A stretch of DNA of 62,955 bases, filler included, from Reclinomonas americana ATCC 50394 (GCA_048213135.1; 7 parts of 4 records of this genome joined end to end with filler, not necessarily neighbours in it); one strand, 5' to 3'. Shown: positions 2,418-62,905, numbered from the whole stretch's first letter. Numbers and translations: made by a program. The notes: a model not told the origin generated them from the sequence alone.

Positions 2418-5400
2418 CTGCGTGTGGCGACGTGAGCGCACGACAGGAATAGAGTGGAGGAGATAATTGATGAGCAGCAGGCACGCGCACCAATGCTGCA
2501 ATCAGTGGCACCGGTGAACTCGGGCGCACACAAGCAGCTGCCGGTGCCATTAAAGCCGTCGTCACACACGCCTCCGTTTTCGCAGCTGCACAACGATGCG
2601 CATCCGGGTCCGTACGAGCCAGCCGTGCACTGTGCCGGGTGAATGAGCAGCGCGCGACAATACAGAGTAGGGTTATCGGCGAGGTAACGCAACATCAACC
2701 GTCAGCATGGTAGTCGTCGTCATGAATGTACCAACCGCACCCGCAACGTCGAAACACACGATAAAATCACCATAGTCGGTAGTCGATGCATGAATTGTAG
2801 AGGTCACGGTGTTTGGAGTGACAGTGGTAGCGGTTGCTATTGTGGACTGCGCAAATGTACAATCGGCTCCAGGTGCAGCGTCGACAAAAACAACGCTGTT
2901 GACAACGGCGCCTCTGTGTAGCCAAACAAGTCAACACTTGCTTCTCCATTCCTCCCCCGGTCCTGCTCCTTCTCCCTCCTTTCCCTATTTCCCTTAATCT
3001 TAACCTTCCTTCCTCTATTTCCTTCCCCCTCCTTCCCCCTCACTTCTCCTCACTTGCCCCCTCACTTCCCCTCCTTGTACATGCGCGTATTGCCACTGCG
3101 GAGGAGACGCAACTGCGGGCCGCCAATGTCGATCAAAAACGGTCCCACGCCAATGATAGAACTCGGAATCACCGAGTACGTGGCTGTCAGAAAACGAGCG
3201 ATGAGCGAACAACACTTGGGTAGCAAGGCAGCAGTCGGTGATGAGGCACACCCGACACTGTCAGCAAGCCGGGAACATCGAAAGCAGCGCCCACGCCGCC
3301 GAATCTGCACGCAATTCCATGAGCGCGACGACAGTTCCAATAATCTTCCCATCAACCACTCAACTTGATACACATCTTGTAGGTCGAGCTGATGCCAGTG
3401 ACAGTAATGGGCACTGTCAGTGACGTGCTGACTGTCGACGATACCGCACCGACTGCGAGCTGCGATGCGCGAAAGGTTCGTCAGCAGGCATATAGAGGCC
3501 GATAATAAACAACACGAGGGGCAGTACCGATGGGTCTGAGGCCACAGCTGTTGCGCAGGCGGCAGAGGAGTCAACGACGAGAATCGCATCGCTGGCTGAT
3601 AGACCGTTGCCAGCAATAACCACCGCGATGCTGGCGCCAATCAGCAGCGAGGAAGGTGCAAACGAATCAGCCGACTGCACATCGCCAACTCTTCAGTAAC
3701 AACGCAGGGGGAGAGCGCGATGAAGCAACACAGACTCGCCTCCGCAGTCAACACGCTTCCCGCAGTCACCGGGACAAAGGACGATGCAGTTGATGTTCTG
3801 TGCAGAACACAGATCCGTGTCAGCAAGGGAGCGCGCAAGATCGCCAGGAGACACGGACGGGGTAGAGAATCGAAACTGGATGCACACAATGTAGAGTCCA
3901 CCAGTGGAGATGGTGACAGGCACCTCCAAGCGAGTTGCAACAGGCAAGGTGAGTGCACCGACCGTCGTCGCACCCGAAGGCGGATCAGAGCAGGATCCGG
4001 GACTGGCGACGACTTTCACGGTGTCGCCCACTGCACAGCGATACGAGTAAGTCAGCAATTGAAAGGTGAGAAGCTGACATGTCACGCACCAGTGAGTCCA
4101 ACGCCGGTGATTGACACGGTGGTGGCAGCGTTGGCGGGTATGGCAGTTGGAGAGAATCCAGTGGCGCCTGCGGCCAGAATACAGAGATGTCACGACGCAC
4201 AATCCACAGTTGTATTTGCTCTTATTTCCAAACCTTGCACCGCAATCGTGCTGTTGACCACAGGCTGGAAGCCCGACGTGCCGCCGTACGAGATACAGAG
4301 CGACACTGTCGTCGGCACCGTGGCCACAAGCTGCAACGTGAGTGCGTTGGGCACGCCAGCCGCGCTGTTGAGGCTCGACGACACAGTGGTGACAGCGCTG
4401 TCGACAGCACAGTTGTCTGACGGACGGATAATCTTGAACGTATCAAAGGCTGCGCGACCAAACGAAGCATAAGATGCTGGCAAGTGGGAAAAAACAGTGC
4501 AAACGATCAGCACACCGCTGAGAGCCGCTCCGCTGACCACCACCAAGCTGGCGGATTGGTTGGGAATCAGCAGCGTGTCGACGCCAAATGTGCCTGTGGC
4601 ATGGAAATGAACAAAAAGTGTCTCCGCGTGCTGAATTCACAGCATGTACGCACCTCGCACGGCAATGGTTCGTGCACTGACATTGTCCATGTAAAACGCC
4701 GCAGCACCGGAAAATCTGCAGCTCGATCGTAGCGGGTGGGTGACATGTTATGATGGGAGGATCAATACTCTTCAAGCAGACAACACACCGAATGCACACC
4801 ACATAGTCGCCCGGTGTGACTGACAGTTGCGGAAGCACACTGAACGACAGGGTTGTCGATGCTGCGCCGCCAACTGTCTTGGTGCTTCCGATGGAAAACG
4901 CGGCAAGTGTCGATGCGCTGCACGGATCGCTGGCCGCGTGGATCGTGATGACATCGTTGGCGGAGAAGCCAAAGCCAGTCAGCATCAGTGTCTGAACGGA
5001 GCCGGGCACCAAGGCTGTCGGAGTTGCAGCAGTCACACTCTGCACGGAAATGTCGCCAATCGCAAACGACGTGGTGGCTGGTTGCGAGCCGAATCTGAAA
5101 ACAACAACAATGACACCACCGTGAGACGGACGCGTAGAGCAATCAAGGCACGTGCGTCATCCCATGATATACTCCGACGCAACTGGTAGCAGACAAGGAA
5201 TCTCCCGCTGACGGAGCCCGACACAGTGAACTGTGCGGAGACAGCGTTGAGCACGGTCACCGACGATACGGTGGCGGTGGCCAGTGGCGGATCGGAGGTG
5301 CACGAGCCGCCAAGAGCCACCAGCTTGACGACATCAGACGTCGATGCACCAGCCACCGTCACCGTAACTGTGAGTGAGAGAGACAAATATTCAAAGTCAG

Positions 5401-7955
5401 GCAGACGACGGTGGGCGCAGAGCACACGCTCAACTCAGACACACCAGTGGTGGCCACGTTGCGAGCCACTGAGGTTACATCAAATGCGGTCGTGGCCTGC
5501 ACTGCCAAGCTGCCGGCAGTCACCGGAAAGAAGTTGCCTGCGCCGCCGTACTGGATGCACAGAAAGTACACACCGAATGTGCTGCCGGTAACCGTTGTGG
5601 AAATCTCGGTGTTCATCGTCGAAGAGATGGCGCCGAGGGACACGATTGCTCCGCCGACGGCGGCGTTTGTCTGACAGTCGATGGACGCGGACATGATCAC
5701 GAGTTTGAGCACGTCGGAGGCGGCGAGTCTGCAAGCACAGAGCAGCGGTGAGTGGCGTGACGGCGAATGGAGTGTCAAGGCGGATGCACACAACGATACG
5801 CCAGAGACCACCAGCGGAGTGGCGGCGGCGGCCACCACCGCAGTGGGATTGATGGAGAGAGTACCTGTGTAGCATTTTCAGGACAGCAGTGACAGCTCGA
5901 GAACAAGAGTAATACGCACCGCGCACGGTGAGAGTGCCACCGGCAACGGCCTCGAACGTCGACACGCCGCCATATGATATGCACCATGTGTACGAGTCTG
6001 CTACCTGCACCGTGACCGACACCGTAATCGAGTTCGGCACGCTCGCCGTGGAGCTCACAGAGACTGTGGCCAGCGCAGAGCCGGTGGTGACAGCACATGA
6101 GCCGGCAATGGGAATGAGTTTGAAAGTGTCCGCGGCTGCTCGATTACTGTGGTGTGAGAGCACAGCGTGAGTCAAGTCACCAGCAAGCTGACCTCACCTC
6201 CGAGGCCGGCGCCGCTAACCACCACCGACGATGGCACAGTGGCGACAATGGTGGATGGTATTGCGCTTGTTGTCCCGCGCAAGACGAACGAAGGAGTCGG
6301 AGTGTAATACGTCGCCTGGTTCTGGAATCTACAGGTGATCGTGTCAACAACACACTCCTTCCATATCTCCGCCCACACGCGCGGCGGAGGGCACGTACCG
6401 GACACACACATTGTATGTGCCAATGGGAGCGACGCCCGTGGTGGACACGCTGACCGTGGACGTGGTCTGCGTGCCATTGACAGTCGGTGCACTGACCGAC
6501 ACGCCGGTGGTAGACAACGGGCCGCACGGATCACTGGCCCTCACGACGGTGATTTCATCCGTGGCCGACAGACCAAAGCCAGAGATGATAATCGACGTCG
6601 GCACAGTCGGCACGAGCAACGTCGGTGTGACGCCAGTGATTGACTGCACGGAAAGGAATCCAACACTTGTTGTGTCGACGGCAGCTTGCGCCGTGAACCT
6701 GCAAGGGGGGGCGGGTCAAGATGTGAGTGCAATGGGAAGCAGGGAATGCGTGAGATGATAAGGCACGCAACATGTAGCACACTTGAAAGCGACCGGCTGT
6801 GGTTCCAGTGAGCGCAAAACTGACAGACGATGAAGCCGAGGCGGTGACTGTGAATGCGTTGAATACGCCGAGGGTGGGGTCGGTGGCACACGAGCCGCCA
6901 GAAGAGATGATCTTGACCGTATCCGTGCTGCGTGCACCGAGCGCCGGTATCGTGACTGCCAGATAGAAGATGACATGCGTGTCACAAAGATGGTGTCAAG
7001 GGAAAGCTCGTGCACCGATGGTCGACAACGAAACTGTTGGCTGACACGCCGATGGGAATGGCGACGGGTGACAATGCACTGGCACCCTGCACGATAAAGG
7101 TGCCATTGACAACGGCGAAGCGGCTTCCGGTGCCGCCAAACTGAATGCAGGTGAGAAAAATGCCAAATGCATTGCCAATTGTCGGCAACGTGATCTTCGT
7201 CGATCCCATGAGCGTGCTGGCGGCAAGTGTCACCGATCCCGCAACAGGGTCTGTCTGGCAGTTGGGCGTCGACGTGGCCACCACAATGCTCAGCACGTCG
7301 GAGGAACTCAGACTGCACGCAGCGTGTTGCGATCGTGAGTCACAACGTGCGTCACAGGACAGAATCGCGGAAACACACCCGGCGCCAGTAATGGAGATTG
7401 TTGAGCTCGCACCGAGAGTGATCACCGGAGGCGAGAAGCCGGTGGTGCCTGGCGGTACTCTCATGTTGAGACAACGACCACAAACAATCAAAATCGAAAG
7501 GAGGACCGCACCTTGCACGACCAATGTGCCAGCGGTAACTGCAGCATAGGGAAGCACACCGCCGTAGGCGATGCACACGAGAAATGTGCCAGGACTGCTG
7601 CCCGTCACGGTGAGCGCGATAGAGCTCGGCACCGAGGCAGTTGACGAGACTGGCGATGTGATGCTGCCGACTTGCGAGTCGGTGGTGCAGCTGCCGGTCG
7701 ACGACACCATTTTGAAGAGGTCCGCGACTGCCGCAAAGGAGAAGGGCTCAGGGCAGAGGGGAAGGAGGGGAAGAAAGGGGGGAAGAAAGGGGGAAGGAAG
7801 GGGGAAGGAGGGAGGGGAGATAGAGAGGGAAAGAGAGGGAAAGAGAGGGAAAGAGAGGGAAAGAGAGGGAAAGAGAGGGAAAGAGAGTGAGAGACTGGAA
7901 TCAAGAAAGGCGGGCAGACAGACAAGCAGCCAGGCAGACTGGCAGCCAGGCAGGC

Positions 7956-8023
<68 letters not shown>

Positions 8024-8294
8024 GACGACGACGACGTACGTACGACGTACGTACGTACGTACGTACGTACGTACGTACGTCGGTCGGTACGGTACGGTAC
8101 GGTACGGTACGGTACGGTACGGTAGGTACGGTAGTCGTCGGTCGTCGTCGTCGTCGCGTACGACGTACGGTACGTANNNNNNNNNNNNNNNNNNNNGTAG
8201 CGAGCGTCGCCGTCCCGTTCGTAACGAAGAATAGTCGAGTCGTTCGGTCGTCGCGTCGTACGGACCGAACGGACGAGTAGTACGGTACGACGAC

Positions 8295-8331
<37 letters not shown>

Positions 8332-11300
8332 AAACGCACCGCTAAGTGCTGCGCCGTTCACAGTCATCGTGGTGGCCGTTGACACGGGTACGACTGTTGG
8401 AGTGATGCCCGTGGTTCCTGCGCCACGAATGCGGTGTAAGAAAGGCACGCATCACATGCTTGCGAGAAAGCTAAGTGCTCACACGCACCGCGAACGGCAA
8501 ACTGGACCGAGATGCCGCCTGGTATGGTGTAGAAACTGCTGGCAGTGGAAAAACTGCAGCGGCGGGATTCAGCAGACGCACGCATGAAACGGAGTGCAAG
8601 TCTGTGACGCACGTGATGCAAACCACATAGTTGCCGGTGCTGGACGCAATCGGCGTGACAACAAACGTCAGCTGCGTGCTTGTGGGGTTGGCAGCCAGCG
8701 AGCTCACTGTGATGCCAGCCACAGGCATGGTGCTGCACGGAGTCGCCAATGGCTGCACAGCGATAACGTCCGCATTCGAGAAGCCATATCCGGTCAGCGT
8801 CATGGTGCCGCCGGTTGGTGGCACAAGGACGGTTGGCGACAAGTTGGACGACAGTCCTTGCGCCGAGATGACGCCCACATTGAAAGAGTCCGCGCCGGCT
8901 GTTCCCGTGAATCTGCAGACGAGTTTTGATGAGAGGGTGGGAAGAATGAAAGAAAAGAAAGAGTGTCGCGACCACGAAACTGGTAACACAAGTTGTATCG
9001 ATTCATGGTGTTGGCCGTCACGTTGACAGAGTACGCAGAGGCCGACGTGGAGGGTGCAGCCACGGTGGTGCCGCCAGCAGCACCCATGACACACGCATCG
9101 GTTATTGGCACGAGCTTCACCATGTCGGATGCTTGAGCTCCAATCACCGCCACAGACACTGCAGAGGCGATAAGAGTGTGTGCATGTTTGCATACAAGCA
9201 CTCATTTGCGCAGATACCATTCATGGCCAGGGCCGCCGGAATGGTTGCGGGCGTGATGCTACTCTGGCCAGTCACGAAAAAGGTTCCGGCGGTCACCGGG
9301 TACGTGCTCCCGGTGTTGCCGAAGCGAATGCACATCACGTATGCACCGACCACCGTCGATGTCATGGACATGGTGAGATTCGTGGATGTGCCGCCGGGCG
9401 AGCTGAACGAAAAGCCAGTAGCCTGCGCTGTGTTGACGCAGTCGGGCGACGATGTGAACGGAATGCTTTTCAGCACATCGGCCGTGGTCAGGCTGGAGAG
9501 CACAGGGGGTGAGAGACGAGGGGGGAAGCAATGGAAGCACACGCGCTTGTAGGTACTCACGCGATACCGCTGACAGTCACTGTGGTGCTGACGCCGGCAG
9601 AGATCTTGGTGGGACTGAAACTCGTCGTTCCTGTGAGGTGGGCGACAATGTGAGCGAGAGTCAGCGCGCCAGCACGTGCATCAGCCCCCACACACTCGCC
9701 TCGCACAGACAGTGTGGCTCCGCCGGTGACGGCGTATGGAACCATGGTGCCCATTCTGTGTGTGAGAGAACCCATCGTGTCACTAATCTTACGCTACAAT
9801 CGATGACAATCCTGGCCAGCCCGCCCGCAACTTGACGCAAACAGTGAACACGGCCACCGAAGTCGGCACCAGCGTGAACTGCTCGAGAGTACTGGTGTGA
9901 CTCGTGAGTGTGAGCATGGTGATGCTCACGTCGGAGGCAGAGGCCGCGTCACACGAAGCCGCGCTGGGAATAATGTACAAAGTGTCGACGCCGAGCGTGC
10001 CGAGACCGTTGCCGGAGATGGCAATTGTGCTCAAGGCGTTGACGAGAATCACGGAGGGAGACAGACCGGTTGCGCCCCTGTTTGTGCAGAGAGAGAGGGA
10101 GAGGGAGAGGGAGGGAGAGGACGAGAAGGAAGAGGGAGNNNNNNNNNNNNNNNNNNNNNNNNNNNNNNNNNNNNNNNNNNNNTTAATTAATTAANNNNNN
10201 NNNNNNNNNNNNNNNNNNNNNNNNNNNNNNNNNNNNNNGCCAATGACGACGCCGCTTGGTGCGCTGTCTGTGCATACACCAGCGCTACCAATGGCCTTGA
10301 TGACGTCTCTGTCGGAGCAAGAGGTGGGAGAGGAAGGAAGGGGGAGTGAGAGAGAGAGGGGGAGCAAAGTCAAAATCGATATCGCAAAGTTGTGAGTGAG
10401 ACGCGCGCGGTGCACGCACAATGATGATAGCCCCCAGCCCTGGACCGTGACACTTGTTTGAACGTTCGCCTGTGTGAGTGCAAGCAGCACGGAGAAGCCC
10501 GTGAGCAAAGAAAGCAAATGATTGTGATGCACGATATCGATATCGGAAGCGCACGCACCACAATCATACTCGGCGTGATGTTTCTTGTTCCTGTGCGAAC
10601 CCACAAGAAGGTGGGAGTGAGTGAGCTGTCGGCTCCATGGTCAGAGACACAACCACAGACCTCGAACGGCGAGAAAGGTGTCGGCCACAATACCGGCCAC
10701 ACAAACATTGTACTCGCCGGGCACGGAGCTGGTGGTGGCCGTGAATGTGATGGAGAAGCGTTGCGCATCAACTACCGTCACGCTCCCTGTGTACGCAAAG
10801 GCTATGAGTGAGAGCGACGAAGCCGAGAACGCAGCGCAGCGGTGCAAGTCACCTTGTGTGATGAATGAGACACACGGTCCACAGGTGGCCGCCGTGCGCT
10901 GCGTGACGACGCACACCGGTGTCGATGTCGTGTACCCAATGTACTTGATCGTAGCCGTCGCGGTGGAGCCTCCAGGGGTGACCGCCTTGCGTGTGGAGCT
11001 CGAGAGAGTGAGCGCAGAAAGAGAGTGGACGATTCTTTGTGTTTGACGCGACACACGCGGAGGTCGGGAAGGGGAGAGAATGAGTGTAGGAGAGGGTGAT
11101 ATCGGCAGCGTAGGTAAGGGAGGGGGCGAGATGACAAGGACACTGGGAAGACGCAGCGCATGCATATTCGAACACTCGAACACTGAAGTTTGTGTGTGTC
11201 TCACCGTTGGTGACATTTCGACGGTGGCCAGAGGCTGCGCGAGAGAGACGCACATTCATTCAGATCATCAACGGTGAACGGTGGCAGTGGCAGATGCAGC

Positions 11301-13720: not shown

Positions 13721-13758
<38 letters not shown>

Positions 13759-14558
13759 CTTCCTCTTCTTCTTCTTCTTCCTCCTCTTCTTCTTCTTCTT
13801 CTTCTTCTTCCTCCTCCTCCTCCTCCTCCTCATTTTCTCTCCCGCAGCCTTCACGTGGCCTGGGAGGGATTCGAACCGCAGCGTGGCCAATACAACACCA
13901 CATACTTGGAGGCGGTGGCTGGAGTGGTGGCCACTCTGGCCGCCGAGAACATCTATGTCATTCTCGACGCACACCAGGATATTTTCAATCGCAAGACGTG
14001 CGGTGAGGGCGTGCCTGATTGGGCTGCCGTGTCGCCCACCGGCAAGGATGCGTTCCCCAGGTATTGTGGCCGAGGGGGGAGGGGAGTGTGGAGGAGGGGT
14101 GGCTCACCGTGTATGTGTGCGCTCAGCCCTATGCCGATCCATCTGCGCTTTGACTCGAAGGGATATCCGCTGTTGCGTTGGGCGAAGGAGGTGGAAGGAA
14201 AAAGGGAGAGAGAGAGAGATAGCGAGAGAGAGAGAGAGAGGAGGCGAGGGTTGCAGAAGGCACGCTGTAGAACTAGAACAAGCTACTTCGCACTGTCGTG
14301 CATCCGCCTTCGGCCGTACAGCAGACGATCAGAGTCAACACAAGGACGGGAGTTCACTTGTATTTCTTTNNNNNNNNNNNNNNNNNNNNNNNNNNNNNNN
14401 NNNNNNNNNNNNNNNNNNNNNNNNNNNNNNNNNNNNNNNNNNNNNNNNNNNNNNNNNNNNNNNNNNNNNNCGTACGTACCGTACGTCCGTACGCGTACGT
14501 ACGTACGTACGTACGTACGTACGTACGTACGTACGTAAGTCGTAGTACGTAGAGAGAG

Positions 14559-14601
<43 letters not shown>

Positions 14602-15177
14602 GTCAGCAAACGAGAGCGGGGCTGCAGAGGACACGCTGTGAATCCAGAAAGTAATTCGCACAGTTGTGTATCCTCCGGTGACGGATGTTAGGCTTAGAGT
14701 GTGTGTGTGAGAGAGAGACTGCGTTTGTCAACAACAAACTCGCGCGGTCGCACTTGTCGAAGACACGTCCTTTCGCATTTAGAGAGAAAAAGAGAGAATG
14801 AGAGGTTAGACGCACTATGTGTATCAACATCTAACTCGCGTGGTCGTGCTCTTGAGATACCACGTCACCCTCAGGTTTTTCCTTACCCTTTCCCATTCAG
14901 CGTCGAGGATTGCCTGCAACACCAGTTCGGCGAGTTTTACCTGACGCACGCTGTCGGCGGCGCGTTCCAGGCCCTTTACGACAACTACCAGGGCATTGCG
15001 GATTCGTTTGCCAACTTTTGGGGGCAAGTGGCCAAGCGGTTCGCGAATGTGCCGAATGTGCTCGGCTATGAGGTTTGTGATCAGTTTTTTGAAGACCTAC
15101 GCTCAATCAGGATACAGGGAGGGCACGAGACAGTATGAGAGAGAGAGACAGACAGATAGACAGAGACAGATAGACAC

Positions 15178-15208
<31 letters not shown>

Positions 15209-17739
15209 CAAAGGCACGCAGACAAACAAACAAAGAAACAGATAGTGAGACAGACAGACCTTCCAGTAAGGCAAACAGACAGGCGTACAGACGGTGAGGG
15301 AGAGGGGGACGAGAGCGTAGAGCGAGTGCCAGCGTGTGTCAAAGGAATGAGAGTTGCTGTCTCGAAACTTGCCAATCTCATCTTCTCTTGTTTTTCGCAT
15401 CACACAGCTGATCAACGAACCGTGGGCTGGCGATGTCCTCGCCCACCCGTCGCTCATCCTGGAGCTCGGCCACGCCGACAAGGTCAACCTCGCCCCGCTC
15501 TACGATCGCGTCGCCAAGCAGATTCGCCAGTACGACACGCAAAAGCTGGTGTTCTACGAGCCGACCACCACCGATGTTGCGTCACATTGCCTCTTTTTCT
15601 TGAACTTGCGAGTCTTGCAGCCGTCATCTGTCTCGTTCATCGATTCTGTCTCTCGGTAACTTCCTTCTTAGTTCTTTCTTGCTGCTTGCCCACTCGTTGA
15701 TTGGACCTCGCTCTCTCATTTGTTCCCTCTGTCTCTTTGCGTGTTGTGCGGTCGAATCTCTTCTATCTTCCTCTCCTCATCATCGCTTGTCTTCCTTCCA
15801 CAGGTGTATCCGCTGGGCTTCCCCTCTGGCCCACTTGGTCCCGAGTACAACGACCGCAACGTGTTGGCCTAGTTGCGTCCTTCCTTCATCTGCATCGACG
15901 ATATTTGGCGACTCAACTCTCTTCGTCTCTCTCTTCTGTTCCTCTCGTCTCGCCCTTGTCCTCCACTTTGCCTCTCCTCATCTCGCCTTCTCTCCCATAC
16001 TCTCTCCCCTATCTCTTCCCCCATTGCTCTCCCCATTCTCTCCCCCATTGCTCTCCCCATTCTCTCCTCTATTCTCTACTCCATTCTCTCCCTCCTCTTC
16101 CCCTTTTATCTCCCCATTCCACTCCCCGTCCTGTCCCCCATCCTCTCCCCCATCCTCTCCCCCATCCTCTCCCCCATCCTCTTCCCATCGCTCTCCCCCA
16201 TCCTCTCCCCCATCCTCTCCCCCATCCTCTCCTCCTATTCTCTCCTCCATCCTCTTCTCTCATCCTCTTCCCATCACTCTCCCCCATCCTCTCCCCCCGT
16301 CCTCTTTCTCCATCCTCTCCTCCATTCTCTCCCTCCTCTTCCCCTATTATCTCCCCCCTCCTCTTCCCCATTGCTCTCCCCCATTCTCACTTCCCCATCG
16401 CTCTTCCCTTTTGCTCTCCCCCATCGCTTTCCCCAATCGCTCTCTCCCATTCTCTCCCCCATCCTCTCCGTCTTCTACCCCTTCTCCCCCTTTCTCCCCC
16501 CTCCAGCCACGTGTACTGCCCACTGGTGCAAGACGATGGCAACCCGAAGTGGCTGTGGTTCTGCGACAAGGAGGAGACCGAGTGGATCAGCGTGCACGTC
16601 ACTGAAGGCAAGCGCCTGCAGAATGGCCTGTTCATGACAGAATGGGGAGCCGAGAGCAACTCCACCGACGGCATCAACTCGATTCACGACTTCCTCGGCT
16701 ACGCGGACAACTATCTGCAGTCGTGGACTTGTGCGTAAACGATGCACTTCCGACTTGAATTCTGTTGCGCACTCACACTGCTCGCAGACTGGCAGTACAA
16801 GTACTACCTCGACTACACTGTTGCGTTCCGCCCTGCTCACTGCTCCTGGTTTTACCACCGCTGACACCCTCGTTTCTTGACGTGCAGACCCAGAATCACC
16901 CTCGTGCGTCTCTTCTGGTGCAGCGTCCATCCTGCACGTTGTCTCATATTTCTCGTGTGCAGCGCAAGGCGAGTCTCTGTGGGACGTCAATGGCCAGCTG
17001 GAGACGAACAAGGTGGCCGCCTTGTCGCGCACGTATGCACAAGCGATTGCCGGCCGCAACGCCAAAATGTCGTTTGATTATCGCACGGCGGCCTTTAACC
17101 TCTCGTACATGATTGATGCGGTGAGTGTTGTAAACGTCCACTTCCGCTCAGCGAGTCTACGGTCTCTCTTCACAAATCCTTCTGCCGCGCATCCATGACT
17201 GCACAATAACACATGTTCCTCTGTGACCATTCTTGCTGTTCATGTGACGGTGTCGTTGCTTCTCTCGTTCGCCACTCTGATTCACGTGCCATCTCTTTTA
17301 CTCAGAGGTTCATTCTCCCTCTTACTTTCTGTCCTCTCTCTTCTCTCCTCTCCTTCCTCCCTCTCCCCTCTTCCCTCTTTCCTTCTCTCCTCACACCCTC
17401 ACCTATTCCCTTCCCCTCTTCTCCCTCACCCCTTCCCCCTTCCTCCCCTCTCTCCTCACACCCTCACCTATTCCTCCCCCTTCCTCCCCCTTCCCCCCTC
17501 ACCCCCTTCCCTTCCCCTCTGTCCCACCCCCACAGTCGGTGAGCGCGCAACCCACCCTCATCTACCTCAACCGCTCGGTGTACTACCCACACGGCTTCAC
17601 GTGCACGGTGAGCGCCTCCACCCTCGGCACCTGCTCGGTCACCGCCGCCGACACCAACGTGTTGCAAGTGGTGCACACGAATCCGGCCAGCACCGCCGGC
17701 CAGACCATTAACATTGCGATTACGGCCGCGCCGCAGTGA
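12987..17739 (+). CDS. Glycoside hydrolase family 5, endoglycoceramidase-like, secreted, multi-exon (part hidden in gaps)
   Basis: Signal peptide MRSLNSLTALSLALILCLSLLAT. Family motifs: W(E)GFEP..G.YN..YL, YVILDAHQD...CGEGVPDW, VLGYE|LINEP (acid/base Glu), YHVYC, FMTEWG (nucleophile Glu), SWTYWQYK and LSRTYAQAIAG. Stop at 17737-17739. Confidence 0.9.
13653..13830 (+). repeat. Intronic (TTC)n/(TTG)n/(TCC)n trinucleotide microsatellite
   Basis: Read directly from the sequence; lies just upstream of the acceptor at ~13847. Confidence 0.9.
16000..16500 (+). repeat. Intronic pyrimidine-rich minisatellite (~12-nt CCCATCCTCTCC units)
   Basis: Repeated cccatcctctcc / cccattgctctc units inside intron 15872-16506. 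Confidence 0.85.
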
Positions 17740-21885: not shown

Positions 21886-22377
21886 CATGAGAGTATGAGA
21901 GAGAGCGAGCAAGAGAAAGAAAGAGAACATGAGAGCACGAGCAGAAGGTTCTGTGTTGAAGCAAAGGAGGAGGAACAACTCAAAAGAGATTGAGTGACTT
22001 GAGTGAGAATGAGAGAGAGGAACCTTGTGCATTCTCCCCTCTCTTCCCCTTCTCTCTCTCTCTCTCCCTTGTCTCTCTGTGCGCATTTTGCAACTCAACA
22101 ACACTCCCTCCTCCTCGGGCCTGTACTTCCCGTCTCCTCCCACGCCTCCCATTGTTGCAGCAGCAAGTGCGCCTCTGTCCATTCCATCCGCTTGTGTCGC
22201 CACTGCTCCTGCCTCTCTTGGTGTTGTTGTTGTTGTTGTTGCTGTGTGATCGCGAAGCAGTTGTGAGAGAGGTCGCGGTCGCAGATATGCATCTTGTTCT
22301 TCTGCTTCTTCGTCTGCGTCGGCGTCGATGTCGACGCGGGTGGTGGAGGGCGCTGGTTGGCTGTGAGAGCAGCCCAT
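17799..22377 (-). CDS. Divergent WD40-like beta-propeller protein with N-terminal MGCSHS dual-acylation motif (multi-exon, gapped)
   Basis: First exon begins MGCSHSQ and splices EEEGVF|TPLPWIVW. The terminal exon has HADAVTSI..VFTVSRDGSLAWVD, LTAVDVASDGSVVAIGS and LAVASENGIVFI. Linkage across the gaps is inferred. Confidence 0.55.
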
Positions 22378-23409: not shown

Positions 23410-26400
23410 ATGAGTGCCTTCCGCCTGTCTCTTGTGTTCTGCATCGTGGTGCTGCTCGCCATGAGCGCGCTGCTTGCCATGGCCAACGACGCCACCGAAG
23501 AACCAGGTGAGGCAACACACACGTGCACTCGCTGCATTACATTGTCCCCTCCATCTCTCTCACGCACTGTCTCACACGCAGTGGAGCATCGCCGTCCGCG
23601 ACACATACGATGGACGAGTCACAAGGTGATGGAACGACGTGCGGCGGCTGCGGCCGCTCGTGCGGCTTCCGCAGTGGAGGATGATGCAGAGTCGCGTCTG
23701 CGCGGTGGTGTCAGCACTCAGGCTTTCACGGTCGACACCACGCAGCTGTTGGCGCCGCACACGGGGCCTATCATTCCCAACGTGAAGACGTACGCCATTT
23801 TCTGGGGCACCACGGTGAGGGTGGAAAAGCGAGAGAGAGAGAGAGAGTCTGTACGAAAAGCAACAACTCAGGCATTGCAGTGTGAGAGTGTGACAGATGA
23901 GGGGGAGAGAGGGAGAGATATCGAGTGAGATGCGTGCACTGAAGAGTGTTCTGAGTGTTCCCACAGAGTGAATTTGTGAGTGTGTCCGGGAGAGAGCGTG
24001 AGATCCCACACGTCGCGCCCACTGGTATGTGCTGACTCTCGCTCTTCTGCTTTCTTTTTTCAGTGGTCGACGACGACGGCCGACGATCGTGTCAATGGCA
24101 TGATCACGTTTTTCAAAAACTACTGTTGCGTGCCCCACTGCGCGCGCTCGATGGATATGACCCTTCTCTCACACTCTTCCGATCGATCAGCCAAGAGTAC
24201 GTACACGAGCCTGATGAACGAGTACAACGCCAGCGACGTCAACGTGTGGGTCACCAACAAGTCGGCACCGAAGAACGTGTACCTGACGACGGATCCGACT
24301 CAGTCGCAGTTCGTCTCCTCGTTTATCGACAACTCGGCAGCGCCGTCCACTGAGCAGTCGTTGAGCCAAGTCGGTTCCAGGATTTGCTCCGTGATCACCA
24401 ACAACTGGAAGGTTGCGCCGCGTGTGGACGCCGTGTACTTCCTTTTCCTCGACGTGTATCCCAACATTGAGTTTCGTGCGCGTCCGGCGCTGGGGACGGT
24501 TGTGTGGTGTTACTCACTCACGATGCGCGTGTGCGTGTGTGCGTGTGCAGCTACTGCGCGTGGCACGATGGCTACACATGCCAGGGTGTGCAAATCCAAA
24601 TTGCATACATGCCGCTCGGCAAGGCTGGCGGTACCTCTGGCTGCATGCCCGAATACGTAGAGCCCAATCACGCCAAGGGTACCGTGCCCTTTGCGGCGCT
24701 GGGTCACAGCGCCGCTTTGGCTACACTTGTAACCAGCACCATTCATGAGCTGGTCGAGGCGGTCACCGATCCGGTGAGAGCATTCCTTGCATCAGCATGC
24801 ATGCAAATTTTTGCGTTCTCATCTCTACTTCCCTCGCTCCGCAGGTCTTCTACGACAGCTCCAAAAAACTCATGGCTGAAACGTACTACCGCGATAAGGG
24901 CGGTGATGAGATCTCTGGTTAGTGTTGGCTCTGCGCACCGCACTGTACTTGTGTACTGATTCCCGTTGTGTTTGCAGACGTGTGCGACTACATGGACTTT
25001 GCGTACGACAGCCCGCAGCAGATCGGCGACGCCAAGTACTACGTGCAGGGCCAGTGGTCCAACCGTGCCTACGCACTGCAGTCTGGCTTTGGCTTTCAAT
25101 ATGGTGGCGGGTGAGTACTTGCGAGTGTTGAAGTGCGTGATTCCAGATGCTGACACATTCGCTGTGCAGCACGAACCAGCACGCATGCGTGTTCACCGCC
25201 GTGCTATGCCCGGCCGGCAAGTGGGGTGCATTGTGTGAGAAGACGTGCCCCACAACCTGGTGAGTTTGTGCGACGCTCTGCGTAAGAGGAGACGACGACT
25301 CATTTCATGCTTTGCAGCTCAACGTCATGCGACTCCAACACTGGCCTGTGTGGCACCACGACGTGCGCATGGTGCGTACTCGCCCTGTCATCCTCACCGT
25401 TGAGTCTCCCTACTGACTGACTATGAACAAAGTGCCTCCACCAATGGCGTCTCGAATGGCACCTGCAACTCCAGTGGCGTCTGCACCACCTGCAATGCCG
25501 GCTTCTATGGAGCCAACTGTGGCACAGCGTGCGCATGTGGCACCGGCTCCACCTGCACTAACACCATCACTGGTGGTGGATGTTCATGCAGCTGGTTCGT
25601 ACTTGGACGACGAATAAGCGATCTGCCATCCATCTCGCTCATTCCTTCTTGCTTGTTCGCAGCTCCAAGACCAACAACATCTCGAACGGCACGTGCAGCG
25701 CCACTGGTGCATGCACTGCATGCAACACCGGCTTTTACGGTGCCACCTNNNNNNNNNNNNNNNNNNNNNNNNNNNNNNNNNNNNNNNNNNNNNNNNNNNN
25801 NNNNNNNNNNNNNNNNNNNNNNNNNNNNNNNNNNNNNNNNNNNNNNNNNNNNNNNNNNNNNNNNNNNNNNNNNNNNNNNNNNNNNNNNNNNNNNNNNNNN
25901 NNNNNNNNNNNNNNNNNNNNNNNNNNNNNNNNNNNNNNNNNNNNNNNNNNNNNNNNNNNNNNNNNNNNNNNNNNNNNNNNNNNNNNNNNNNNNNNNNNNN
26001 NNNNNNNNNNNNNNNNNNNNNNNNNNNNNNNNNNNNNNNNNNNNNNNNNNNNNNNNNNNNNNNNNNNNNNNNNNNNNNNNNNNNNNNNNNNNNNNNNNNN
26101 NNNNNNNNNNNNNNNNNNNNNNNNNNNNTTTGCACCACCTGCAACGCTGGTTTCTATGGGGCCAACTGCGGCACGGCGTGCGCATGTGGCACCGGCTCCA
26201 CCTGCACAAACACCATCACTGGTGGTGGATGCTCGTGCAACTGGTTTGTGACCACGCCGAAGCTGTCAGCGTCTCTCATGCGATGTGCTCATCTCTCGTT
26301 ATTAATCGCAGCACAAAGACCAACGGCGTCTCGAATGGCACATGCAACTCGAGTGGCGTTTGCACCACCTGCAATGCTGGTTTCTATGGGGCCAACTGCG

Positions 26401-26876
26401 GCACGACATGCGGATGCGTCAATGGCGGCACCTGTGTCAACACCATCACTGGCGGCGGATGCACGTGTCCCGCCGGTCTGTTTGGACCGACATGCGCCGG
26501 TGTGTGCACGTGTGCACCCAACTCGACGTGCTCTTCCACTGGCACGTGCTCGTGCCCGTGCGCCGCCGGTGGCGGTACGTGTGACACAAGCGGCTGGTGC
26601 ATTTCGGTGAGCGACAAGCCATAATGCCAACATTTTTCTGCTTTCGCTGTGTACTGACTGTACGCGCAGTGCCCGGCCAACCTCGTCGGACCGACATGCA
26701 GCACGTGTGCCCAGCACTGGTTCACGCCGGTCAGTGGCGCCGCCTGCAGCGTCTCCTGCGACGCCGTGGCGACGACCTACCAGAGCAAATGCAACGGCAA
26801 GGGCCGCTGCAACTCCAACGGCCTGTGCGTCTGCGTCACCGGCACCAACGCCGGCAAGGTGGCGTCCACCTGCTAA
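23410..26876 (+). CDS. Secreted PHI-1/EXORDIUM-like domain protein with C-terminal EGF/laminin-like Cys-rich repeats (copy A)
   Basis: Signal peptide, then GPIIPNVKTYAIFWG, DYCAWH, TIHELVEAVTDP, DEISDVC and YYVQGQWSN. These are followed by repeated CNAGFYGANCGTACxC modules. TAA at 26874-26876. Confidence 0.75.
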
Positions 26877-54916: not shown

Positions 54917-55086
54917 TTCCGAAGTCGACCGGCTTTCTCTTTCTTCGCCGTCGCTTTTCTCTTCTCTCCTGTCTTTGTGTATGCAATGAAACGCCACGCA
55001 CCTTGTTGTTGTTACGAAAGCAGAGAACGACAACTTCATGTCCCGTTGCTCCGCACTCTCCCTCTCCCTTCGTTGCGCGCCAACCA

Positions 55087-56142: not shown

Positions 56143-56284
56143 CAAACATGCCCCACTTTCACTGGATAAAAAAACAACAGTGTACCACCACCACCCCCAT
56201 CACCTACACCGCTCACTCCCTTTGTTTGCTCTCTGCTCCTAATGCATCGAGTAATTATGTTTAGCCGCGCGCACCCTTTCACGG

Positions 56285-57112
56285 CTACCGTGCCGTCTTT
56301 GGTGCAGGCCGTGATGAGGCGGGTGGAGGCGGACCGGGTACAACGTCGCCCGAAGACGGTTCCCTGGCCGACGCAGTTCTACGATAGCGCACGACGAGAG
56401 TGAGAAATAAACACTGACTGCACATGTTCCCCCAGTCGGACAGTAATCTCACCTTGCCGCATATGCCCGGCGCGCACTGGATGACGACGATGATGATGAC
56501 TTGCCGTACACAGCAACTGCTTCCTTCATCGAAAGCTTGGGGACCTGCGCACCCACCGTCAGCATCTACATCACCCCTTTCCTCTCTCCATTCGCCCGTC
56601 GCACGCAACTGTCGGCGTCGTGGCCTTGCCTCGCGCATCAGTCGAATTGCGCCCACTGCCCGTGGCCGCCGCCGTTGCCGCCGAGACAGCTGGCATATCC
56701 GCAGCGCCGCGATTTCGTTTGGTTGAGTGCGGTGTGGTCGACGTGGTGCGCGGACCATTGGCGGCGTCGGCCCCGTACACGGCCGAGAGAGCCGAAAAAG
56801 AGGAGCCCGAGCGAGCCGCCGAGGCGCCGCTGCCTTGAGGTGCGCTGCTCAACGGCAGTAACGTGCTGTCGCCACCGGCGGCCGCCTGAGCCGCGGCGGC
56901 AATGAGCAGCGCTTCCACACTCTGTGCTCGCTGGAAGGGATTCGGTGAGGCGCCGGCCGAGTTGTCGGCCGTGGTTACTGTCACTGACGGAGCAGGTGTG
57001 GAGCCGGAGGGTGTGGCGAGGGCCGGGAAGAGACTGCCGGGACCGCTGCCGCCCGATTTTCCGCCGGTGGCCGAAGCGACGGCGGATGCCGTTGAGGCGG
57101 GGTCGAAGGAGG
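56285..57112 (-). CDS. 3' exons of a low-complexity Ser/Ala/Pro-rich protein
   Basis: Three exons join in frame (..KATTPT|VPKLSMKE..AAR|TASAREP..KTAR*). Confidence 0.55.
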
Positions 57113-57522
57113 CTGCGTGGAGGGCAAGGGAGAGAAGGGAGGGTGAGCAAGGGAAAGATAGAAGAAGGCAAGGGGAGAAAAGAGAGAGTCCAAGGTGGAC
57201 GACGAAGGAAAAGAGGAATCGGAGGTGGAGACATGAGCGGAAAGGGGAGAAAAGAAACTGGGATCTAATGCACTACCTTCTCAAGCATCCTTGCGACATG
57301 CGCCAGTCTGATTCATGAACTCTTTCTCCCACATTTTCCGCCATCGAAACTCCGCCGATCTAAGTGCTTTCTGATGAAACGACTTGCAGACCCACACATG
57401 TGTCTCTCGTGAATGCAATCTTCCTCTGTCTGTTTGCCTCACTCGTCTAAATAGCCAAAACACACTTGGCTTTCAGAGCACGCGATCTACATCGTGCTGT
57501 CCGCCGTCTCTTTCGCTCACTC

Positions 57523-57570
<48 letters not shown>

Positions 57571-57763
57571 CTCTCAAATTTTGTGCTGTTCCGTGCCTCG
57601 TGCAAGTTGAAGGCTGTGTCACAATTGTCGCTTCGCCAAACTGCCGCCTCGCTTGCTCGTTCTNNNNNNNNNNNNNNNNNNNNNNNNNNNNNNNNNNNNN
57701 NNNNNNNTTAATTAATTAANNNNNNNNNNNNNNNNNNNNNNNNNNNNNNNNNNNNNNNNNNNN

Positions 57764-58559: not shown

Positions 58560-58682
58560 GGGAGGGAGAGGCGTATTTGCGTGCGAGACGGAGACGGATG
58601 AACGAGTGATCATGGGACTGTCTCGACGTTTCAACCCCGCCTTCTTCTATAACAACACTTCATTACTTCCCCCCCAAAGACC

Positions 58683-59958
58683 TCACAGGTGCAGCATGGG
58701 ATCCGCGCCGCATCGAAAGTGCAACATACTGGCCTCCTCCAATATAAAGCACCGCAGCACTTGCTCTGGCAGGCAGCGGCGATCGACTTCCTCACCGCTC
58801 TCCTCCGCTTGCAGCTGCTGCACGGCGAGCATTGCCGAGCGTGCAGCATCCACCTCAAACCTGGCGAGGCCGCAAGGTGTGGACCACACATGCACGTCCA
58901 CGCCACCACAAACAATGTGCTGCCCGTCGGGAGCGACATCCACAGACATTACAAAACCAATGTCGCCTGCCAGACGTCGCACCTCTTTGCCACTCGCCAG
59001 TGACCAGATACGCACAGTGTCGTCATTGCTACCGCTGACAACGAATAGACCATCGGGCGTGACAGCAACTGCTCGCACCCACCCAGTGTGACCCTCCAAC
59101 CGTCGCACCTCATCTCCGCTCTTCAGCGACCACACGCGCACTGTGCGATCATAGCTGCCACTCACCACAAACAGACCATCGGGTGAGACAGCAACAGACC
59201 CCACCATGTCAGTGTGCCCCTCCATCCGTCGCACTTCCTCGCCACTCGCGAGCGACCACACGCGCACTGTCTGGTCAAAACTCCCACTCACCACGTACTG
59301 CCCGTCGGATGTAACAGCAATTGACATCACAGAGGCAGTGTGCCCCTTCAATCGACACACCTCTTTCCCACTCGCCAGCGACCGCACCAGCACACAATCG
59401 CCACCACTTCCGCTCACCACGTGCAGACTGTCGGGGGTGATGGCGAGACAGCAAAAGTCTCCAGNNNNNNNNNNNNNNNNNNNNNNNNNNNNNNNNNNNN
59501 NNNNNNNNNNNNNNNNNNNNNNNNNNNNNNNNNNNNNNNNNNNNNNNNNNNNNNNNNNNNNNNNNNNNNNNNNNNNNNNNNNNNNNNNNNNNNNNNNNNN
59601 NNNNNNNNNNNNNNNNNNNNNNNNNNNNNNNNNNNNNNNNCATCCCTCCCTCTCCCTCCCATGTCTTTCGCTCATCCCTCAGTACTCTTCCGCAGAACCC
59701 TGCGTGGACACAGACGGGAGGTGCACTCAGTCGCCGTCACTCCCGACGGTCAACAAATCATCAGTGGTGGCGACGACAAGACAGTGCGTGTGTGGTCACT
59801 GGCGAGTGGCAAAGTGCGACAGCTGAAAGGACACGCATACGCGGTGTGTTCCGTCGTCGTCACTCCCGATGGTCAGCAAGTTGTGAGTGGGAGGTCGGAC
59901 GGAGTCATTCGAGTGTCGTCACTGGCAAGTGGCGAGGAAGTGCGACAGATGAAGTACA
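58683..59958 (-). CDS. WD40-tail family member 10; its 5' part (59661-59958) is assembled on the plus strand
   Basis: The plus piece ends atg aag tac a and the minus piece starts ct gga gac, giving MKYTGDFCC and matching the paralog IAFTADLCC. Seven repeats in total; tail RCLPEQVLRCFILEEAS..FRC. Confidence 0.8.
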
Positions 59959-60414
59959 NNNNNNNNNNNNNNNNNNNNNNNNNNNNNNNNNNNNNNNNNN
60001 NNNNNNNNNNNNNNNNNNNNNNNNNNNNNNNNNNNNNNNNNNNNNNNNNNNNNNNNNNNNNNNNNNNNNNNNNNNNNNNNNNNNNNNNNNNNNNNNNNNN
60101 NNNNNAGAGGGTGTGTTTGCGTGAGGGTGAAGAGTGGGCGAGTGGGCTCGTGGGACAGCTGTCTCGCAATCGACTTCAACAGTCGCCCTGGCAAGCAAAA
60201 GGATCAGCAAAGCAGACTTCAATACCACTCACACGACGCTGATCACAGCAACTGTCGCCTTGCGACAGAAGCAGTGACACGCAATGGCGGACGTTTTTTG
60301 GCGCCAAAATTGATCACCGTTTCAGCTCGTTTCCTTTTCTTTCGTCATCGCGCGCACATGCATGCCGCTGGCACACGACGTGACTCTCCTCACTCACGCA
60401 CTCGTGCGGTCGAC

Positions 60415-61066
60415 ATGCGCGTGCTTGTCGTCGTCTCCCTCGTCGTCGTTCTCGCACTCGTTCAAACAGCAAGTTGCGCGCGCGCAGCGCTAGCGCGCAG
60501 CGTTGCCTCTCCTCTTTGTGCGACTCTTCCTTTCCACTTACAATGTACTCCTCTCTTGAACTGCTCACAGACGCTCAGACGGTGACCACCGCCGTCGCCA
60601 ACAACATCACTGGCTCGTCCGCCACTCTCAATGCGTGGGTCAATCCCAACAATGTCGCCGGTGGCACCACCAACTCCTTTGAGTGGTCTCCATACTCTGC
60701 CACTCTGGGTGTCTCCTCCTCCACTGTCTCCACCAATGTGGGCACGGCAGGCACCTCAGGAACGACAGATGGTGTTGGTGCAAATGCATTGTTCAATGCA
60801 CCAATGGTGTGGCCGCGCTCGCGGTTGCTCCAGCTGTGCTTCTCATGTGACGCTCTGACATTGCGCGTGTGTGCTCGCTCGACAGGGACTGGCCTTGGAC
60901 GCAGCAGGCAACCTGTACGTGAGCGATTACAAGTTTCGCTGTCGTCTGTCGATTGTTGCTTCGGTTGTCACACCTCCTCTCACTCCTGCACACGCGCGAT
61001 GACAGCAACTGCCGCATTCGACGCATCACACCTGCAGCCACAGTGACTACCTTTGCTGGCAGCACA
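60415..61066 (+). CDS. Secreted protein with an FN3-like start and NHL repeats (3' partial)
   Basis: Signal peptide MRVLVVVSLVVVLALVQTA, then ATLNAWVNPN..FEWS, then DGVGANALFNAPM|GLALDAAGNLYVSDYN|NCRIRRITPAATVTTFAGS. Confidence 0.75.
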
Positions 61067-61167
61067 NNNNNNNNNNNNNNNNNNNNNNNNNNNNNNNNNN
61101 NNNNNNNNNNTTAATTAATTAANNNNNNNNNNNNNNNNNNNNNNNNNNNNNNNNNNNNNNNNNNNNA

Positions 61168-62905
61168 TTCTGCACCGTGTCGGCATATCAGGCACTTGTG
61201 TGTGCGGAGCGACGACTGCCGGCTGGGAGCCGTGCGGCGCAGCTGTGTCGCAGCATGCTGGCGGAAGTGGAGCCGTCGATGAGTGCATTCTTCAACACGG
61301 ATCTGTCGTATGTGGAAGAGCACAATTCGTCACTGCGCGAGAATGCGCATGCGCAGCTGTTCTTGGCGGCAGCGATTGGTGAGTGAAAGAGAGAGCGAGA
61401 GAGAGAGAAGAGAAGGAGTGTGTGTGTGTCTGTGTGGTGTGTTGTCAAGTGGGTGGCTCAATGGTTTCGGCGTGACGAGTGCAGGTGTGCTTGCATCGCA
61501 GCGTGATGGCAGCGGAGCAACAACCCGAGCCGTTTGTTGTGCGTGATCGCCGCTGTGTGTTTGTGACTTCCTCAGCTGTCCGTGTGTTGCTGGCTGATGG
61601 CTGGTGCTGGTGTTGTGCAGCGTTCGTCCTTCCGATCATGAAGGGCCTGTGGGAGATCGAGGACTTCACGTCGTTGGATGTGGAGAGCTGTGCGCTGCTG
61701 ATTCCGGTGTTCGACCGACGCATTCAAATGGAGGCTGGTGAGGGAGGATTGATGTGCCTGTGAGCGAGCGAGTGAGCATGCGTGTATGCCACTCTCACAC
61801 ACGTCCGTGCTTGTACACACACACAGTGGTGGATGACGAGGCGGATCGCAAGCAGCGCGACGAGGCTGGAGAGTACCTGCGCAAAGCGCTCGACCTGATC
61901 AACAACTGGTGAGAGAGAAAGAGACAGAGAGGGAGAGGAGTGGCACTGTTGGTGATGGACTGTTGTGATCTGACGAGGTGCGTGGTGGAATGGAATAACA
62001 GCGTGGAAGACGACGGCACGCATGCTCGACTGACGAGCTCGTTCTCGCGGATGTGGTCGGAGTACATTTTCGTCAACAGCAACCTGCGTGCGACGGCGTT
62101 GTTCTGTCGATCACTTCTGGACTGTGGCATGGTGAGCGAGTGAATGGATGGATGTACGGACGGGAGTGGGTATGCACTGATGTAATAGATGCAGATGGAC
62201 GATGATCGAGTGTTGATCGAGCCACTGAACGGACTGCGACTGTTGGTGCACCGACTGGTGCGTGGCATTGCGAAGGCACGCATTGCGACGCGAGTTGGAT
62301 ACTTTGGGACCACTGTCGTTGCGTTTTCACATCTTCTGTATGTGTGTCTCTCTCTCTCCCTTGCTCGTTCACTCTCACTCACTTNNNNNNNNNNNNNNNN
62401 NNNNNNNNNNNNNNNNNNNNNNNNNNNNNNNNNNNNNNNNNNNNNNNNNNNNNNNNNNNNNNNNNNNNNNNNNNNNNNNNNNNNNNNNNNNNNNNNNNNN
62501 NNNNNNNNNNNNNNNNNNNNNNNNNNNNNNNNNNNNNNNNNNNNNNNNNNNNNNNNNNNNNNNNNNNNNNNNNNNNNNNNNNNNNNNNNNNNNNNNNNNN
62601 NNNNNNNNNNNNNNNNNNNNNNNNNNNNNNNNNNNNNNNNNNNNNNNNNNNNNNNNNNNNNNNNNNNNNNNNNNNNNNNNNNNNNNNNNNNNNNNNNNNN
62701 NNNNNNNNNNNNNNNNNNNNNNNNNNNNNNNNNNNNNNNNNNNNNNNNTTCTTCATCACCCCCCACACAACCACGCACCTTTCGGCTTCACCTCCAGCTC
62801 GCGCACCAACATGTCCTTGTAGAACAGTTGCACTTGCGACGCCTCAGGGTCCGACGTCATGCGCTCGTAGTACCGACACAGCAAATTCGTCACCACAGCA
62901 TTCTC
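61168..62905 (+). CDS. Alpha-2-macroglobulin-like (thioester/TED-type helical domain) fragment; next exon on the opposite strand at 62779-62905
   Basis: Spliced exons give NLRATALFCRSLL...LVRGIAKAR...GYFGTTV|ENAVVTNLLCRYYE, resembling the A2M pattern RxTAL..L...W/YxxTQEN..AL..Y. Recognised by motif only. Confidence 0.45.

Follow-up and report, generated by a model that had tools for sequence, protein, structure and literature searches.

Pairing of 5' splice sites (donors) with U1, a small nuclear RNA (snRNA), outside the standard register is known only as a rarity, from humans. The portions of Tan et al. (2016, PMC4856993) drawn on here distinguish a register that is shifted, bulges of a single base (at +2/+3 and at +3, among others) and loops that are asymmetric. 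Noncanonical registers with validation amount there in total to 3119 of 201,541 donors (1.5%), and the bulge +2/+3 register to 54-68 sites (54 in the updated list, beside 36 for the +3 bulge). Here we analyse a 62,955-base stretch of DNA from Reclinomonas americana ATCC 50394 (the window), in which a sequence-only reading had named 23 donors, mostly GTTGCG or GTTTCG, whose conserved G lies at +6 instead of +5. That reading had set them against the rarity of shifted or bulged registers in vertebrates, a rarity that the human figures bear out.

All results rest on the window sequence and on homologous proteins from public collections. We call the 23 named donors listed sites, designate minus-strand sites by their first intron base, and mark the exon-intron boundary by a slash. 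Each of the 23 motifs was found where it had been placed, and none follows a G (T in 11, A in 9 and C in 3 at -1). From five genes we curated a set of 46 donors (8 in a GH5-like gene, 7 + 7 in a pair of paralogues, 19 in a repeat-module gene and 5 in a ClC gene), of which 12 came from a motif-blind gene model alone and in which the paralogue copies are not independent. Sixteen of the 46 are offset (12 GTTGCG and 4 GTTTCG), including three unlisted ones on the minus strand (3113, 8980 and 7034), and all 16 introns start with GT and end in YAG. Taken at the level of sequence and homology, the analysis establishes offset donors as real GT donors that are frequent in the modelled genes, exclude G at -1 and restrict +5 to C. 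Twelve listed sites are well corroborated as donors (14172, 15576, 15872, 16820, 24125, 28064, 24471, 28412, 9831, 6771, 5183 and 2693) and four more are plausible (33322, 35424, 60473 and 60933), so that the proposed donor status stood for part of the list.

The two classes differ on both sides of the cut. G occupies -1 in 25 of the 30 standard donors and in none of the 16 offset donors (Fisher 2e-8), in keeping with the earlier observation that standard donors here often follow G; leaving out the second member of the paralogue pair gives 20/25 and 0/14 (8e-7). From +3 to +7, offset donors read T, G or T, C, G and T (the last in 15/16), whereas standard donors have G at +3 in 22/30, G at +5 in 28/30 and T at +6 in 24/30. 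On the exon side, standard donors show C at -3 in 20/30, with A 9, T 10, C 7 and G 4 at -2, and offset donors show C at -2 in 8/16, with A 8 and T 8 at -1. Among standard donors GTGAGT is found 9 times, GTGCGT 6 times and GTGTGT 3 times, beside others, and GTGAG is the commonest type (12/30). The description of each offset site as an ordinary donor with an extra T holds in part: the C-G-T block and its G are displaced by one relative to GTGCGT, but this does not extend to any donor type, as the class is confined to K-C-G-T (12 GTTGCG and 4 GTTTCG versus 0 GTTGAG in the curated set). GTTCGT, which had been counted among the ordinary donors of this genome, occurs in 0/30 curated standard donors. 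Exclusion of G at -1 from all G-C-G-T donors was considered and rejected, since 5 of 8 standard GT[GA]CG donors follow G.

Against the described systems, the offset class combines likenesses and differences. Human +1 shifted-register sites (Roca and Krainer 2009, via the cited parts of PMC4856993) are likewise cut at GU with the consensus one base deeper, and, like the offset donors, the example given there has an exon end without G at -1 (it has A). In humans only a few sites, whose shifted helix is stable, use this register, whereas here 16 of 46 curated donors are offset and show almost no predicted pairing with textbook U1; the restriction to K-C-G-T is likewise a feature of the class here, unlike the human register. 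Judged from these features, the offset class appears to work like the known shifted register while lacking its helix stability under a textbook U1. The bulge +2/+3 and +3 registers (Roca et al. 2012, via the same source) also place an extra U between GU and the distal consensus, but they keep the -1 G pair, and G stands at -1 in 0/16 offset donors. In the parts of PMC9803359 and PMC11732430 cited here, donor classes leaning on U5 or on U6 show anticorrelated exon and intron strength, as is seen in this window, where donors with G at -1 often have a weak intron side (GTATTG, GTTTGT, GTTTGG) and the offset class has no G at -1 and an invariant block. Those classes share one register, however, and the cited parts contain no account of a +5 G displaced to +6. 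Resemblance to GC-AG introns is also present, as every GTTGCG site here has GC at +4/+5, but GC is disfavoured or excluded as the cut. No account of donors of the GUUGCGU type as a class emerged from full-text literature searches, although one may exist.

The evidence that carries the class most directly comes from a GH5 endoglycoceramidase-like gene on the plus strand (13849-17120), for which we deduced 9 exons and 8 introns. The joined 9-exon coding sequence is open, has a length that is a multiple of 3, and is collinear with 13 homologues. The gene has 1607 homologous proteins at E <= 0.001, the best of full length being P0043, which itself matches endoglycosylceramidases of known structure (5ccu_A, E 3.7e-33); six blocks of P0043 were placed on the window DNA by tblastn. 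Pfam gave only a sub-threshold Cellulase match to one open reading frame (ORF), and a metagenome scan with one exon of this gene found no relative. The eight donors are 14061 GTATTG, 14172 GTTGCGT, 15073 GTTTGT, 15576 GTTGCGT, 15872 GTTGCGT, 16731 GTGCGT, 16820 GTTGCGT and 16904 GTGCGT. Among the others, the junctions LGYE/LINEP at 15073 and QSWT-Y-WQYK at 16731 are both gap-free against 13/13 homologues.

The four offset donors of this gene are constrained in the same way. At 14172-14178 (CT/GTTGCGT, phase 2, intron of 729 nucleotides including an N gap), four residues separate a conserved P and C both in the window and in 13/13 homologues. At 15576-15582 (AT/GTTGCGT, phase 0, 228 nucleotides), the segment length equals that in 9 of 13 homologues, with four longer, two of them by one residue, and none shorter. 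At 15872-15878 (TA/GTTGCGT, phase 2, 635 nucleotides), the join NVLA-Y-HVYC is gap-free against 13/13 homologues, and at 16820-16826 (CT/GTTGCGT, phase 0, 68 nucleotides), the join DYT/TQ is gap-free against 11/13 and identical to P0043. With junctions set by the homologues, 4 of the 8 donors are GTTGCGT, and the probability of at least 4/8 by chance is 1.8e-7, given that GTTGCG makes up 0.71% of the GT dinucleotides in the window. The 8 introns of this gene are fixed by protein alignment, independently of the motif.

At each site, GT and GC donors and AG acceptors up to 18 nucleotides away were tabulated wherever the frame stayed open. At GTTGCG sites the only near-neutral alternative was the GC 3 nucleotides downstream (GTT/GCGT), which adds one residue, while the other alternatives insert or delete several conserved residues. 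If that GC, or a nearby GT, were the true donor, the class would be an artefact of frame-guided boundary setting; the GC does keep the frame at 11 of the 12 GTTGCG sites that were curated, and at 15576, where it is the sole alternative and adds a Val, 2/13 homologues are one residue longer. At 14172 and 16820, however, the added residue conflicts with the spacing in 13/13 and 11/13 homologues, respectively. At 15872 the GC donor creates an in-frame TAG, so that the argument made earlier for excluding it holds, and the one remaining pair that keeps the frame costs 3 conserved residues. None of the four curated GTTTCG sites has a GC 3 nucleotides downstream, also as claimed, and one of them, 8980, still has a junction spacing equal to that of its paralogues at 6771 and 5183. 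Misplaced boundaries are accordingly an extremely improbable source of the class.

The paralogous sites belong to a large repeat-module gene on the minus strand (1-10136), in which short introns (55-90 nucleotides) lie at homologous module positions with differing donor types. One such position bears AA/GTTGCGG (9831), CA/GTTTCGT (8980), AC/GTGCGT (8612), AT/GTTGCGT (6771), CG/GTACGT (6398), CA/GTTGCGT (5183) and CG/GTGTGT (4788), and the junction peptides of its four offset copies have equal spacing. These copies lie at 9825-9831 (phase 2, 76 nucleotides), 8974-8980 (unlisted, phase 2, 68 nucleotides, junction LCYQ.FTGTAG, picked by the motif-blind model), 6765-6771 (phase 2, 73 nucleotides, junction VCYM.FTAQAA, also a motif-blind pick) and 5177-5183 (phase 2, 89 nucleotides, junction VCYQ.FGSQPA), the last being a site at which the motif-blind model chose a different donor. 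Elsewhere in the gene, CA/GTTTCGT at 7028-7034 (unlisted, phase 1, 79 nucleotides) is a motif-blind pick with a single alternative, which deletes 5 residues, and AT/GTTGCGT at 2687-2693 (phase 0, 64 nucleotides), also a motif-blind pick, makes an open join to the 898-residue ORF in which the gene ends and has two alternatives. CA/GTTGCGT at 3107-3113 (unlisted, phase 2, 200 nucleotides) is a weak site found by motif-blind models only, with ten frame-compatible alternatives. The 898-residue ORF has matches resembling fn3 and the purple acid phosphatase N domain; as a query in a protein Atlas search it returned generic fn3 clusters only.

A second set of offset donors is shared by two tandem paralogues (23900-25000 and 27840-28940, plus strand) that are 87% identical, with the exons kept and the divergence lying inside the introns. 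Both copies carry CT/GTTGCGT and GA/GTTTCGT. In copy A, the former lies at 24125-24131 (phase 1, 66 nucleotides) and is backed by exon conservation and the enumerated alternatives; the latter, at 24471-24477 (phase 2, 80 nucleotides), is backed by exon conservation, has no GC at +4, and leaves alternatives that delete 5 or add 3-6 residues. Their counterparts in copy B, at 28064-28070 (phase 1, 68 nucleotides) and 28412-28418 (phase 2, 62 nucleotides), are not independent of them, and the motif-blind model agrees with the second. A protein search with an exon of this pair gave no match. The segmental duplication itself spans 23900-26900 and 27840-30900, with the second copy crossing the linker at 29395, and identical intron borders are predicted in both duplicates at 26265/30264 and 26607/30606.

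Across the whole window the bare hexamers show no over-representation; their excess is located at exon ends. The counts are 57 for GTTGCG, with 49.7 +/- 7.1 in shuffled sequence (at least 57 in 16/100 shuffles), 28 for GTTTCG, with 29.0 +/- 5.0, and 22 for GTTGCGT, with about 12-14 expected. Because the hexamers are not enriched overall, the question becomes whether they sit at exon ends above chance. A motif-blind test asked of each GT whether the frame is open and coding-like upstream but breaks down downstream, and of 7421 GT sites 1325 passed; GTTGCG passed in 19/52 cases (p 0.0011, second among 241 hexamers) and GTTGCGT in 11/20 (p 2e-4, second among 586 heptamers). The top heptamer was GTGGCGG (11/18, p 5.4e-5), which may reflect repeated coding sequence in a cluster of WD40 genes. 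Of the window's 57 GTTGCG, the 11 preceded by G include 0 listed donors, and the 46 without a preceding G include 19 listed or curated ones (Fisher 0.010). A motif-blind dynamic-programming gene model predicted 173 introns in the window, with GTTGCG as the donor of 6 (Poisson p 0.0017) and GTTTCG as that of 4 (p 0.0035), although it over-calls on both strands and misplaces validated junctions (15581 for 15576 and 15861 for 15872). When donor mixtures were learned instead, the model drifted to GTGAG and that version was dropped; neither model was used as a catalogue; a codon-only coding measure separated coding from non-coding sequence poorly.

These counts bear on the possibility that there is no special class, and that the sites recur by accident, through common ancestry of paralogous introns or a mobile family of introns, or through sequencing errors that add a T. 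The lack of window-wide enrichment fits such an account, as do the two pairs of sites that are paralogue copies and the several sites within one repeat-module gene. It is contradicted by the motif in four independent introns of the GH5-like gene (p 1.8e-7), and by the differing donor types at homologous intron positions of the repeat gene. In a blastn comparison among the 16 offset introns, the paralogue pair and one 29-nucleotide low-complexity match were the only similarities, and mobile introns of the introner type were rejected since these introns otherwise have nothing but the motif in common. A randomly inserted T, moreover, would not shun donors that follow G, and the T is present in each copy of the paralogue pair. 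We consider the absence of a class hardly credible. U12-type introns were likewise rejected, as the donor strings contain no extended, highly conserved U12-type donor box. In the 45-nucleotide tails of the offset introns, CTGAC-, CTCAC- and GTGAC-like motifs resembling branch sites and pyrimidine-rich tracts were noted by eye only.

We then considered how such donors might be read, using nearest-neighbour duplex energies and the U1 5' end sequence given in the cited part of PMC4856993, from which the organism's own U1 may differ. With this textbook U1, mean energies were -10.1 kcal/mol for GTGAG donors, -6.4 for other standard donors and -4.8 for GT[GA]CG donors, with the three H/GTGCGT donors of the last group at -1.4 to -2.7. 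The offset class averaged -1.09 kcal/mol, compared with -2.97 for 2980 random GT sites, and so is predicted to pair with textbook U1 worse than random GT sites do; this mean falls short of the stability that marks the human shifted register. The poor predicted pairing lends indirect support to the variant U1 or U6 that the earlier reading had proposed. The +1 register was nominally the best in 9/16 curated offset donors and in 5/10 other listed sites. Changing C to A at +5 in silico improved pairing of the offset class with textbook U1 to -3.5 kcal/mol, yet 0 curated donors are GTTGAG. With a U1 carrying G-C at nucleotides 5-6, the class reached -6.67 kcal/mol and the same change weakened it to -3.44, which matches the donors observed. 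We also scanned 211 U1 5' ends with at most 2 substitutions at nucleotides 3-9 for their separation of 39 donors from 600 random GT sites. Textbook U1 ranked 45th of the 211, with an area under the curve (AUC) of 0.635 (offset 0.231, standard 0.861), and variants with G at nucleotide 5 led the scan; with U5G alone the AUC was 0.787 for all donors, 0.654 for the offset class and 0.862 for the standard one.

In a bulged-U register, U1 would keep its canonical pairs at -1, +1 and +2, one U of +2/+3 would be extruded, and base pairs would form again on G-C-G-U. GT-T-GCGT formally fits this arrangement, and the register is validated in humans at the 54 and 36 sites mentioned above (Table 3 in the cited part of PMC4856993). 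Such a bulge would, however, keep and favour the pair between a -1 G and C9, and offset donors lack that G (0/16 curated and 0/23 listed versus 25/30 standard), which favours a register shift; in duplex folding the bulge was never the best register. It is, in our view, a very improbable explanation.

We regard an offset-register reading of these donors as fairly probable. The introns are of the U2-type GT-AG kind and are cut before GT, with the conserved K-C-G-T block at +4 to +7 rather than +3 to +6. In the model that we propose, an offset site would amount to the consensus C-W-G/GTGCGT with T for G as the first intron base and the cut one base upstream, so that the same reader would bind one base off the cut and the cut would be set by the nearest GT. 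The reader would be a U1-type RNA complementary to G-C-G-U, with G or G-C at the place of the two pseudouridines of textbook U1; this RNA might be the organism's sole U1 or an additional, variant one. The model as a whole, comprising U2-type introns, an offset reader and its G-C-G-U complementarity, falls somewhat short of an even chance, and the altered U1 taken singly is a tentative element that we would sooner doubt than assert. Its evolutionary version is unlikely as it stands: the lineage would have changed its U1 5' end or added a second U1 reading G-C-G-U, with GTGCGT as the cognate donor and the offset form as a major class excluding G at -1.

Several points weigh against, or limit, the case for an altered reader and for the breadth of the class. 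The window contains no snRNA gene by Rfam, which gave 0 matches at the gathering threshold. The scan of U1 variants was fitted to the same donors, and so in part restates their C-G; it was exploratory and took no account of pseudouridine or proteins. A G at U1 nucleotide 5 would mismatch GTGAG, the commonest standard donor (12/30), and the weak textbook pairing of the three H/GTGCGT donors may mean that the organism simply tolerates weak pairing with U1. As far as is known, the 5' end of U1 is nearly invariant among eukaryotes, and a change there is improbable a priori. The shift on the exon side is drawn from 16 sites that include paralogues, and its C at -2 is a weak signal, seen once in 10 uncurated listed sites. 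Finally, the curated genes were chosen for carrying listed sites and 12 of the 46 donors come from the model only, so that the one-third share of offset donors is no estimate for the genome; the earlier claim that the class occurs in nearly every spliced gene was not confirmed.

Ordinary snRNAs might suffice instead: textbook U1 would bind weakly in the +1 register, and selection would fall to U1-particle proteins and to the U6 and U5 steps, with U6 reading C-G-T at a flexible spacing of 3 or 4 bases. Where pairing is predicted, the +1 register is the commonest (9/16 curated and 5/10 other listed sites), and H/GTGCGT donors of equally weak predicted pairing work in the same genes. Two major donor classes, biased toward U5 loop 1 or toward the U6 ACAGA box, have been described (PMC9803359 and PMC11732430, in the parts cited), and a variety of registers at U1 does not have to recur at U6, according to the cited part of Tan et al. 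(2016, PMC4856993). This explanation must accommodate a predicted pairing below that of random GT sites and a textbook preference for GTTGAGT over GTTGCGT, the reverse of what is observed; the human shifted-register example is also far more stable, at -6.5 kcal/mol (Table 2 of PMC4856993, as cited). Somewhat improbable by itself, it is nearly as likely as the altered-U1 mechanism.

The remaining sites are best read against the structure of the window, which has the character of a eukaryote-like draft, with 57% G+C outside gaps and 31 N runs. It contains six N44-TTAATTAATTAA-N44 linkers (10139-10238, 29395-29494, 43169-43268, 50466-50565, 57664-57763 and 61067-61166) and is thus a chain of at least 7 contigs joined artificially; a string search identified TTAATTAATTAA as a generic pseudomolecule linker. 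As the linkers are artificial, neighbourhood across them is not biological and introns may not span them.

In the ClC channel gene on the plus strand, AT/GTTGCGT at 33322-33328 (phase 2, intron of 117 nucleotides) is a plausible donor, with approximate spacing to distant ClC homologues and a rival GA/GTGATT 22 nucleotides downstream; a protein search for this gene returned two distant ClC proteins only. GC/GTTGCGT at 35424-35430 (phase 1, best intron 78 nucleotides) is also plausible, its join PIVNNS.RDQILVG having the spacing seen in P0152. The same gene provides a counter-example at 35119-35132, where a standard G/GTGAGT at 35119, whose join LLPVL/LATVCAVLVGN has the length seen in P0151 and P0152, is followed at 35126 by a GTTGCGA that is merely intronic. 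This site shows that GTTGCG by itself does not suffice for a donor.

Two further plus-strand sites are plausible: AA/GTTGCGC at 60473-60479, with two frame solutions (introns of 98 or 106 nucleotides), and AA/GTTTCGC at 60933-60939, whose acceptor lies past the artificial join at 61067. Candidate donors on the same strand are AC/GTTGCGC at 47226-47232, with a weak coding signal on either side, and TC/GTTGCGT at 62318-62324, a motif-blind pick with an unconvincing downstream exon and an N gap between. On the minus strand, the candidates are TT/GTTGCGT at 40409-40415 and 42374-42380, AA/GTTTCGT at 41899-41905, TT/GTTGAGT at 22093-22099, which had been claimed as the sole GAG-type member, and CA/GTTGCGT at 56603-56609, from a motif-blind pick only. 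Automatic acceptor picking gave no solution for any of these seven candidates on the two strands.

Other features of the window were noted in passing. Between 43270 and 59462, both strands carry a cluster of long, intron-poor WD40-repeat ORFs with very strong Pfam scores, broken by N gaps and linkers. The k-mer excess of the window is dominated by a TACGTACG tandem repeat (7900-8170 and throughout) and by TC/GA and GT/CA microsatellites, and sense-strand introns are often CT-rich, giving long spurious ORFs. A relaxed Rfam search of the window (E <= 1) yielded low-complexity, microRNA-like matches adjoining N gaps and no snRNA. Sub-threshold matches resembling microRNAs or small nucleolar RNAs at 33938-34139 and 14468-14552, on both strands, lie in GA/TC low-complexity sequence by N gaps and are probably artefacts. 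The names PHI-1/EXORDIUM-like and NHL-like, considered for two genes, were set aside as unsupported; Pfam had no match for those ORFs. A PDB search with one exon gave no match.

If the share of offset donors is real, the organism would offer a natural system for the setting of the cut site relative to the binding site, for the spacing tolerated by U6, and for the evolution of the U1 5' end. If the altered U1 is also true, it would represent a natural co-evolution of U1 and its 5' splice sites, with a second register in routine use. A motif-trained gene model misplaced junctions at validated sites in the window, which suggests that annotation with a single donor matrix would misplace offset donors likewise; gene finders of this kind can be expected to corrupt a large share of the organism's gene models.

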